Shown here in pieces: positions 78 through 546 of a stretch of DNA of 15,676 nt. Numbering within the stretch: the stretch's first letter is position 1; every line of letters starts with the position of its first letter. The notes under the pieces were generated by a model, which saw only the letters and a program-made list of their open reading frames with translations, did not search any database and was not told the DNA's origin. Position numbers and translations under genes: made by a program. Source of the DNA: Escherichia coli. Its GTDB lineage: Bacteria > Pseudomonadota > Gammaproteobacteria > Enterobacterales > Enterobacteriaceae. The stretch is from assembly GCF_003334305.1 (NCBI RefSeq), contig NZ_QOWS01000041.1. One strand, given 5' to 3'.

Positions 78-413
78 TTCATGGTATTGGTAATATGACA
101 ATATTTTAGAGAGTATATTTTATTCATTATAAAATGCCCCGTAATATTTATCTCACAATGATTATGATTAGTGGATACGCCCCTACATTTCCAGACAGCT
201 GTTATCACTTAATCTATTACTGGCCCGCAGCCGTAGATATTCTAGCCACGGTGGTAACGAGTATCCGGAAGAGATTCCACTTACACTCTTTCAATCCTAT
301 TGCAAAAGCTGATTTACTCAACAGGATTAAAAGAGGGAGTTTGATACAATTTATTTCACTTTTTGTTAGAATACTAATTCTTTTCTTGTATTTTTTGAGG
401 AAATGAGCACGGA

Positions 414-474
414 ACACGACATAATCTGTAGTCAGTAAAGAGTCTATCCTCCCTGACTACAGATTATGTCGTGT
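414..474. repeat. Perfect 22-bp inverted repeat with a 17-nt spacer (ACACGACATAATCTGTAGTCAG / CTGACTACAGATTATGTCGTGT)
   Basis: Read directly: arms 414..435 and 453..474 are exact reverse complements. It lies about 70 bp downstream of the iutA stop. The stem is AT-rich and no U-tract follows on either strand, so it is not a typical intrinsic terminator. Confidence 0.8.
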
Positions 475-546
475 ATTATATGATATCAACTTGGCTGTCA
501 GCGGCCATGTTGATATCAGCGTACCTTTGTTGTAAAGGAATACCGG

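Follow-up and report, generated by a model that had tools for sequence, protein, structure and literature searches.

The aerobactin plasmids of Escherichia coli raise the question of what the long palindrome is that follows iutA, the gene of the ferric aerobactin receptor, and where it came from. The DNA analysed here, referred to as the window, is a stretch of 15,676 nucleotides from E. coli (contig NZ_QOWS01000041.1), in which positions 78-546 separate an IS1 end from the iutA stop codon. A sequence-only reading had described this interval as AT-rich and without a convincing gene. It had also proposed that the palindrome was atypical for a Rho-independent terminator and resembled either a protein-binding site or a decayed small mobile element whose ends had been joined.

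The Palindrome Downstream of iutA

The iutA gene (547-2748, minus strand) is an open reading frame of 733 amino acids that carries this name in identical records and has its stop codon at 547-549. The palindrome begins 72 nt beyond this stop, on the transcribed strand. Its two arms (414-435 and 453-474) are 22 nt long, 100% complementary and separated by a spacer of 17 nt (TAAAGAGTCTATCCTCC, 436-452); a repeat search and an independent scan agree on these limits, as they do with the initial description. The sequence CTGTAGTCAG occurs in both arms, and the flanks are GCACGGA and ATTATAT. When the whole 15.7-kb window was shuffled 30 times, with loops of 3-30 nt allowed, the longest perfect arm was 8-11 nt, so that arms of 22 nt are far above chance. 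The G+C content of 78-546 is 36.5%, versus 50.6% for the whole window, which bears out the AT-richness seen before, and that of the palindrome stem is 41%.

Other perfect inverted repeats are present in the window. One of them, at 10108-10161, exceeds the palindrome in length, with 23-nt arms around an 8-nt loop (AATGCGTTTGCAGTCATTACAGT ... ACTGTAATGACTGCAAACGCATT), and lies between the convergent reading frames of an MFS transporter (8654-9847, plus strand) and a crcB-like protein (10227-10607, minus strand). Another, perfect over 21 nt and with 25 nt in its loop (9212-9278), is found inside the MFS-transporter (shiF-like) reading frame, which is unusual in a coding sequence.

Similarity to Iterons E and F of RepFIB Replicons

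Distant-mode blastn against PLSDB indicates that the core of the palindrome (421-469) is 82-88% identical to a site that, in more than 2000 IncFIB plasmids, lies right against the stop codon of rep. In many of the records that start with rep, the match falls at 979-1027. In pEC14_114 and in a Klebsiella IncF plasmid, it directly follows the stop codon of the RepB-family initiator gene of the RepFIB replicon, at a site that carries no annotation. The site in question is the very iteron pair that has been labelled E (direct) and F (inverted) in the FIB replicons of F and pO157 (Suppl. Fig. S2, Lazdins et al., NAR 2025, PMC11983097). The RepFIB iterons bind Rep, with the upstream set (B-D') tied to the origin and the downstream set (E-K) to the control of replication; the EFGHIJ block alone, carried on a P15A vector, efficiently displaces the pO157 FIB replicon (PMC11983097).

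The comparison can be refined at the level of single iterons. These were searched for with the core pattern ATAAACTGTAGTCAG, and the RepFIB iterons found in this way yield the consensus ATAARCTGTAGTSAG. Both arms of the palindrome contain ATAATCTGTAGTCAG, which agrees with the core consensus at 14 of 15 positions. In the left arm (plus strand) this core occupies 421-435 and aligns with the inverted iteron F, while in the right arm (minus strand) it occupies 453-467 and is E-like, being direct relative to iutA. The sole difference is found at position 5, where real iterons have A or G and the palindrome arms have T, a base that none of the 11 reference iterons has there. The spacer has the length of the RepFIB E/F spacers inspected (17 nt) and is identical to that of pEC14_114 at 13 of its 17 positions. 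Furthermore, the identity reached 87.8% in one orientation versus 77.6% in the other, and the better orientation places the pair with respect to iutA as E and F are placed with respect to rep.

A position weight matrix was derived from the RepFIB replicon of an identical ColV-type plasmid (NZ_CP023363.1), whose 11 iterons themselves score between 17.7 and 29.6 bits. The arms of the palindrome score 24.3 bits (414-435) and 17.9 bits (453-474). The best other site reaches 10.1 bits in the window and 12.45 bits in 50 kb of NZ_CP023363.1, the latter inside an integrase gene beside the replicon. Judged by sequence, the two arms are the only iteron-grade sites outside the replicon.

The pair does not stand where a RepFIB replicon would have it. 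Its neighbour is iutA with the hairpin that follows this gene, not the rep stop codon, and iterons G-K are absent. In NZ_CP023363.1 the RepFIB replicon (22167-23144) and the palindrome (about 40951-41011) are approximately 19 kb apart, so the palindrome is an orphan copy and not a working part of the replicon. The E. coli plasmids that have the palindrome show additional E/F-type matches, and the Klebsiella plasmids show none. The RepFIB-like homology is confined to 49-61 nt, with neither a rep remnant nor further iterons in 78-413; local word-7 blastn against RepFIB replicons returned no additional homology in this segment.

Taken together with the E/F pairs of F, P307, pO157 and the ColV plasmids, the palindrome shares the 15-nt core except for position 5, the inverted arrangement, the spacer length and a related spacer sequence, as well as the location downstream of a gene in the same orientation, with E proximal, and a matrix score in the range of true iterons. 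It differs from them in its distance from rep and the origin, in the loss of G-K, in the T at position 5 and in its arms, which are symmetric over 22 nt, whereas real E/F pairs span 15-18 nt and contain mismatches. The perfect symmetry runs 7 nt past the iteron core (ACACGAC/GTCGTGT), further than an iteron needs in order to function. This extra symmetry suggests either a homogenisation of the arms by template switching or selection for a hairpin. Overall, the resemblance in core, spacer and layout indicates that the palindrome is very probably homologous to a RepFIB E/F pair. Of the two possibilities that the sequence-only reading had offered, the protein-binding palindrome is the better one: each arm is an iteron of RepFIB type, a site that the RepFIB initiator is known to bind. 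The joined ends of a mobile element find no support, as the arms match no IS end, there is no target duplication and a replicon has a single copy.

Mosaic Organisation of the Interval between IS1 and iutA

The interval 78-546 is a mosaic of an IS1 end, AT-rich DNA, an IS2-like fragment, unique AT-rich DNA, the palindrome and a second hairpin. Its left boundary is the IS1 terminal inverted repeat (ATCAGTAAGTTGGCAGCATCACC, 55-77), read from the sequence, and an IS1A transposase is annotated just past this repeat in identical plasmids. The DNA that follows (78-171) is AT-rich, with 24.5% G+C. Positions 78-156 are also found between two IS1 copies in another plasmid, and the homology to Klebsiella plasmids starts at about 157. 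A weak Fur-box-like motif is located at 154-172, to the left of the IS2-like end, with 14 of 19 positions matching GATAATGATAATCATTATC; it may be a chance match in AT-rich DNA. For comparison, the iucA promoter box at 8561 matches at 17 of 19 positions and the sitA box at 15374 at 15 of 19.

The IS2-like fragment (172-245, minus strand) belongs to the end of an IS3-family element. In distant-mode blastn, positions 172-242 match IS2/IS3-family ends in thousands of plasmids at 85-90% identity, and the alignment includes the terminal repeat. The fragment comprises this inverted repeat and the last 20 or so transposase codons: the minus-strand translation of 183-251 ends in ...EYLRLRASNRLSDNSCLEM, and an intact IS3-family transposase in ...EYLRQRASNGLSDNRCLEI. 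In contrast to a complete element, the body and the other end are missing, and as only about 74 bp are left, this is a dead fragment rather than a functional element.

Between this fragment and the palindrome lies AT-rich DNA (246-413, 35% G+C) without a gene or known element, which is restricted to this aerobactin lineage. Distant-mode blastn of plasmids and of E. coli genomes gave no match to 246-413 outside the aerobactin context, and 78-171 likewise matched nothing beyond this lineage. The open reading frames present, 134-406 (plus strand, 90 amino acids) and 217-417 (minus strand, 66 amino acids), match no NCBIfam family, and in identical RefSeq records PGAP annotates no gene between IS1 and iutA, in line with the earlier statement that no convincing gene is present. 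Both frames were rejected as genes: the start of the former lies outside the part common to Klebsiella, and the latter overlaps the IS2-like transposase remnant in a different frame. The T-run at 395-400, at the 3′ end of the spurious 134-406 frame, shows a length polymorphism, with T6 here and T7 in most plasmids and in Klebsiella. Promoter-like sites are no more frequent than in shuffled sequences, according to a promoter/terminator scan.

The IS1 end abuts position 78, 97, 119 or 224 in different plasmids. These endpoints form a nested series, all of them short of the palindrome and iutA, a pattern typical of IS1-mediated adjacent deletions. Beyond IS1, outside the window, several ColV-type plasmids carry vapBC followed by genes for an AAA-family ATPase and a UvrD-like helicase (2.4-5.0 kb of two extracted loci); the ATPase/helicase pair could be a defence system.

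The Second Hairpin and the 3′ End of iutA

A second inverted repeat, which had gone unremarked, is located between the palindrome and the iutA stop codon (481-495/504-518, minus strand), with 15-nt arms containing one mismatch and an 8-nt loop. It folds on both strands (z = -4.7 and -6.0), and the ColV, Klebsiella iuc1, E. coli chromosomal and Salmonella Kentucky lineages all have it. At three base pairs, both sides have changed with pairing kept (GAUAUC/GAUAUC to GUAAAC/GUUUAC), and the lineages concerned include some without the palindrome. Judged by these paired changes, it is 481-518 that forms the conserved 3′ structure of iutA, rather than the palindrome. This hairpin has no U-tract and may be a non-canonical terminator or a 3′ stabiliser. 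A small 5-bp stem-loop (CCTTT GTTGT AAAGG, 524-538, minus strand) appears in the consensus fold and is weakly supported, with one-sided changes only.

The palindrome itself folds with -41 and -38 kcal/mol on the two strands, with z about -8 (-8.2 for the -41 kcal/mol fold). The tails that follow its stem are UCCGUGCUCAUUUCC on the iutA strand and AUUAUAUGAUAUC on the opposite one, with a U-tract on neither, and the terminator scan detected no terminator-like site at 414-518 on either strand. The view that the palindrome is atypical for a Rho-independent terminator is thus upheld. Like the intrinsic terminators and 3′ stem-loops of siderophore receptor genes, it is a stable hairpin shortly past a stop codon on the transcribed strand; it differs from them in the missing U-tract, the 17-nt spacer and the stem G+C. 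No family of Rfam 15 was matched at the gathering threshold, the best score being that of a plant microRNA precursor (23.4 bits versus a threshold of 110). The sub-threshold microRNA and sRNA matches obtained under permissive settings in 1-1200 were discarded, being those expected of any long hairpin.

Other iutA genes end in different ways, all of them without the palindrome. A GC-rich hairpin follows the gene in E. albertii, a canonical terminator (GC stem and T-run) follows the homologues of Cronobacter, and an IS end is found at the 3′ side in a second Klebsiella iutA lineage.

Distribution of the Palindrome

About 900 E. coli IncF/ColV-type plasmids carry the whole stretch at 99-100% identity, and about 600 Klebsiella virulence plasmids carry it from about position 157 on at 97.7% identity. 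The palindrome is present in 889 of the 5426 RefSeq complete E. coli genomes (approximately one in six), nearly always plasmid-borne and once per replicon. Genomes have a median of one copy, and the context is always that of aerobactin. Within the same set, 1858 genomes contain the 3′ part of iutA. Since the E. coli copies are near-identical through recent spread, their perfection is uninformative with regard to selection.

Several iutA lineages lack the palindrome, namely the chromosomal one of E. coli, those of Salmonella, E. albertii and Cronobacter, and the second one of Klebsiella. About 1000 chromosomal iutA loci lose megablast similarity to the window at about position 505. Absence from near-identical aerobactin regions, which the sequence-only reading held would speak against its view of the palindrome, was found in part: some of these loci have an iutA 3′ part that is 98% identical and lack the palindrome. 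It is also missing from a Salmonella plasmid locus in which the 150 C-terminal residues of IutA have 88% amino-acid identity. The chromosomal and Salmonella loci indicate that the aerobactin operon does not have the palindrome as an integral part. Moreover, in rare records it is cut by an IS3-family element at about 416 or by IS26 at about 435, and the existence of such truncated plasmids shows that it is dispensable.

The syntenic stretch of the chromosomal loci is not palindromic. Its alignment to the palindrome region scores 18, compared with 10.9 ± 1.8 in shuffles, 2 of 1000 of which reach 18. This hints, and no more, that a common ancestor may have had the pair, which would have decayed where no RepFIB replicon was present. 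In two chromosomal loci the iutA genes have 98% and 85% identity to that of the window, and the DNA downstream of iutA is nearly the same in both. As the genes differ and the 3′ flanks do not, gene and flank have had separate histories, a sign of recombination close to the stop codon.

In some copies, those of Klebsiella plasmids, the palindrome is imperfect in one arm, the F-like one, which has a 6-nt tandem duplication (TAATCT) and a C-to-T change outside the core. Metagenome contigs contain intermediates that have just the duplication. The symmetry with the other arm, together with the comparison with RepFIB, indicates that the perfect form is ancestral. The initiator of the Klebsiella virulence plasmids shares only 58% identity with that of the E. 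coli RepFIB replicon and has iterons of a different type (ATTGACTGYGRTATG), so that the replicon of these plasmids is not the source of the palindrome. In Klebsiella the palindrome is therefore carried without an initiator of the cognate type, and the changes fit relaxed constraint, although their numbers are too small for proof; both changes leave the iteron cores almost intact. The replicon of the Klebsiella virulence plasmid NZ_CP026166.1, which is of FIB(K) type (5429-7433 of the extracted locus), is laid out just as RepFIB is, with iterons on both sides of rep, the first downstream one overlapping the rep stop codon.

Proposed Origin and Possible Activity of the Iteron Pair

The explanation that we favour, and consider probable from the comparisons above, is that the palindrome is an orphan RepFIB E/F iteron pair, probably a leftover and possibly a protein-binding site that is still active. 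The pair would have been placed after iutA and its hairpin, with iutA in the position and orientation that rep normally has, and the rest of the replicon would have been lost. In the simplest and most likely history, a fusion or deletion brought the E iteron of a divergent RepFIB-type replicon up against the 3′ end of the aerobactin module, just beyond the hairpin of this module. Insertion of the IS2-like element, loss of its body and trimming by IS1 would then have followed.

The donor was sought in several collections. PLSDB in distant mode contained no replicon with the exact iteron variant, nothing being closer than 88%, and viral contigs gave no match. The core palindrome pattern, searched in representative genomes of 100,044 species, was found in 4 RepFIB contexts and 10 unrelated hairpins. 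In metagenomes, a 20-mer of the arm retrieved 18 loci, all in the aerobactin context.

On ColV-type plasmids, the cognate initiator is supplied by the RepFIB replicon some 19 kb away on the same molecule. The quality of both arms tips the balance slightly towards binding of the palindrome by this co-resident initiator, which would occupy both arms with one monomer per iteron, at centres 32 bp apart. The pair would in this way add two sites to the pool of control iterons and, by titrating the initiator and handcuffing the origin, could play a small part in copy control and IncFIB incompatibility. That such an effect on copy control or incompatibility is physiologically meaningful is speculative and seems unlikely. 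Two extra iterons stand against seven (E-K), so the effect may be negligible. In addition, the hairpin formed by an iutA transcript that runs through the palindrome would be very stable and may stop read-through or 3′ decay.

Control iterons that lie apart from an origin have precedents. One of them is incA of P1, a control-iteron array outside the origin. REPI of pColV-K30 reportedly lies beside the aerobactin genes of that plasmid, with additional incompatibility loci mapped in this region by Waters and Crosa in 1986 and by Perez-Casal and Crosa in 1987. The orphan pair may resemble incC of mini-F, incA of P1 and iteron 10 of RK2 in acting through titration and handcuffing. It differs from them because these are located in or next to their own replicons and have demonstrated effects, whereas the palindrome is a single, distant pair on a virulence operon, known from its sequence. 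The titration/handcuffing model for FIA and FIB is taken from PMC11983097, where RK2 iteron 10 is named only as a feature of a plasmid construct.

A much bolder proposal would make the orphan pair a working part of ColV-type virulence plasmids. The pair would be bound by the initiator and handcuffed with the RepFIB origin 19 kb away, and read-through from the Fur-regulated iucABCD-iutA transcript under iron limitation would strip or remodel the initiator, coupling copy number or incompatibility to iron; alternatively, it would be an "anti-competitor" site that helps to displace other IncFIB plasmids. We regard this proposal as highly improbable. No paper linking iutA with iterons was found in the literature searched, in which the identification of the palindrome as an iteron pair appears to be undescribed.

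Alternative Explanations

The most serious competitor, a minority view that we do not favour but take seriously, holds that the E/F homologue is a pure relic without a present function, a neutral and not yet decayed scar that dates from an old fusion or deletion of replicons. Only an island of 49-61 nt is left, amid debris such as the IS2-like end, IS1 and the endpoints of IS1 deletions. Copies truncated by IS26 or by an IS3-family element persist, those of Klebsiella tolerate a duplication and a substitution, and the near-identity that recent spread has given to the E. coli copies means that purifying selection is not demonstrable. Against complete inertness, some occupancy is hard to avoid when the arms are iteron-grade and a cognate initiator is made from the same plasmid, and downstream RepFIB iterons alone strongly inhibit FIB replicons (PMC11983097). 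Furthermore, the syntenic chromosomal stretch, where no RepFIB is present, is weakly alignable and has lost its symmetry, while the plasmid copy is perfect.

The alternatives that set the iteron identity aside fare less well. The palindrome could be an RNA-level element of iutA that terminates the iucABCD-iutA transcript or, as a stem-loop, stabilises its 3′ end; the resemblance to iterons would be irrelevant to such a role. Its place 72 nt past the stop on the transcribed strand, its fold (-41 kcal/mol, z = -8.2) and a perfect pairing that exceeds the iteron core are in keeping with this, and the RepFIB counterpart, which directly follows a gene and has a partly self-complementary spacer, could double as a rep terminator. 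Nevertheless, this reading is improbable, given the lack of a U-tract on both strands, the empty terminator scan and Rfam matches limited to sub-threshold microRNA precursors. The 481-518 hairpin, with its three compensatory pairs, also intervenes before the palindrome; the chromosomal loci with a 98% identical iutA 3′ part and the Salmonella locus do without the palindrome, and other lineages use GC-rich or canonical terminators. An RNA-hairpin role at the end of the iutA transcript is possible and compatible with the iteron identity, but the evidence favours the 481-518 hairpin for it. Finally, long and perfect arms resembling terminal repeats, in an IS-rich neighbourhood, could recall a decayed small mobile element with its ends joined or paired (a MITE or an IS-circle junction), or else a cruciform or a recombinase site. 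This is the least probable of all the readings, to be given hardly any weight. The arms match no IS end, and only RepFIB E/F pairs match them outside the aerobactin context; the flanks have no target-site duplication; the copies, with a median of one per genome, are always beside iutA; and the core palindrome led, in the genomes of the 100,044 species, to RepFIB contexts and unrelated hairpins only. The results on IS ends, target duplication and copy number come close to refuting the mobile-element reading, which is rejected here.

Significance for Aerobactin Plasmids

The orphan iteron pair corrects the assumption that the palindrome is the iutA terminator, as the conserved 3′ hairpin is the neighbouring 481-518. 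It is also relevant to plasmid curing with FIB control iterons, since such designs depend on the potency of the downstream iterons in trans. Should the pair be inert, it would still be a well-explained scar.

Besides the 889 of 5426 E. coli genomes, the palindrome is carried by the main hypervirulence plasmids of Klebsiella pneumoniae, and it records a past junction of the plasmid aerobactin module with a RepFIB-type replicon. Because the Klebsiella initiator uses different iterons, this suggests that the aerobactin module may have reached the Klebsiella plasmids from a RepFIB-type background, a direction read from the iteron type only.
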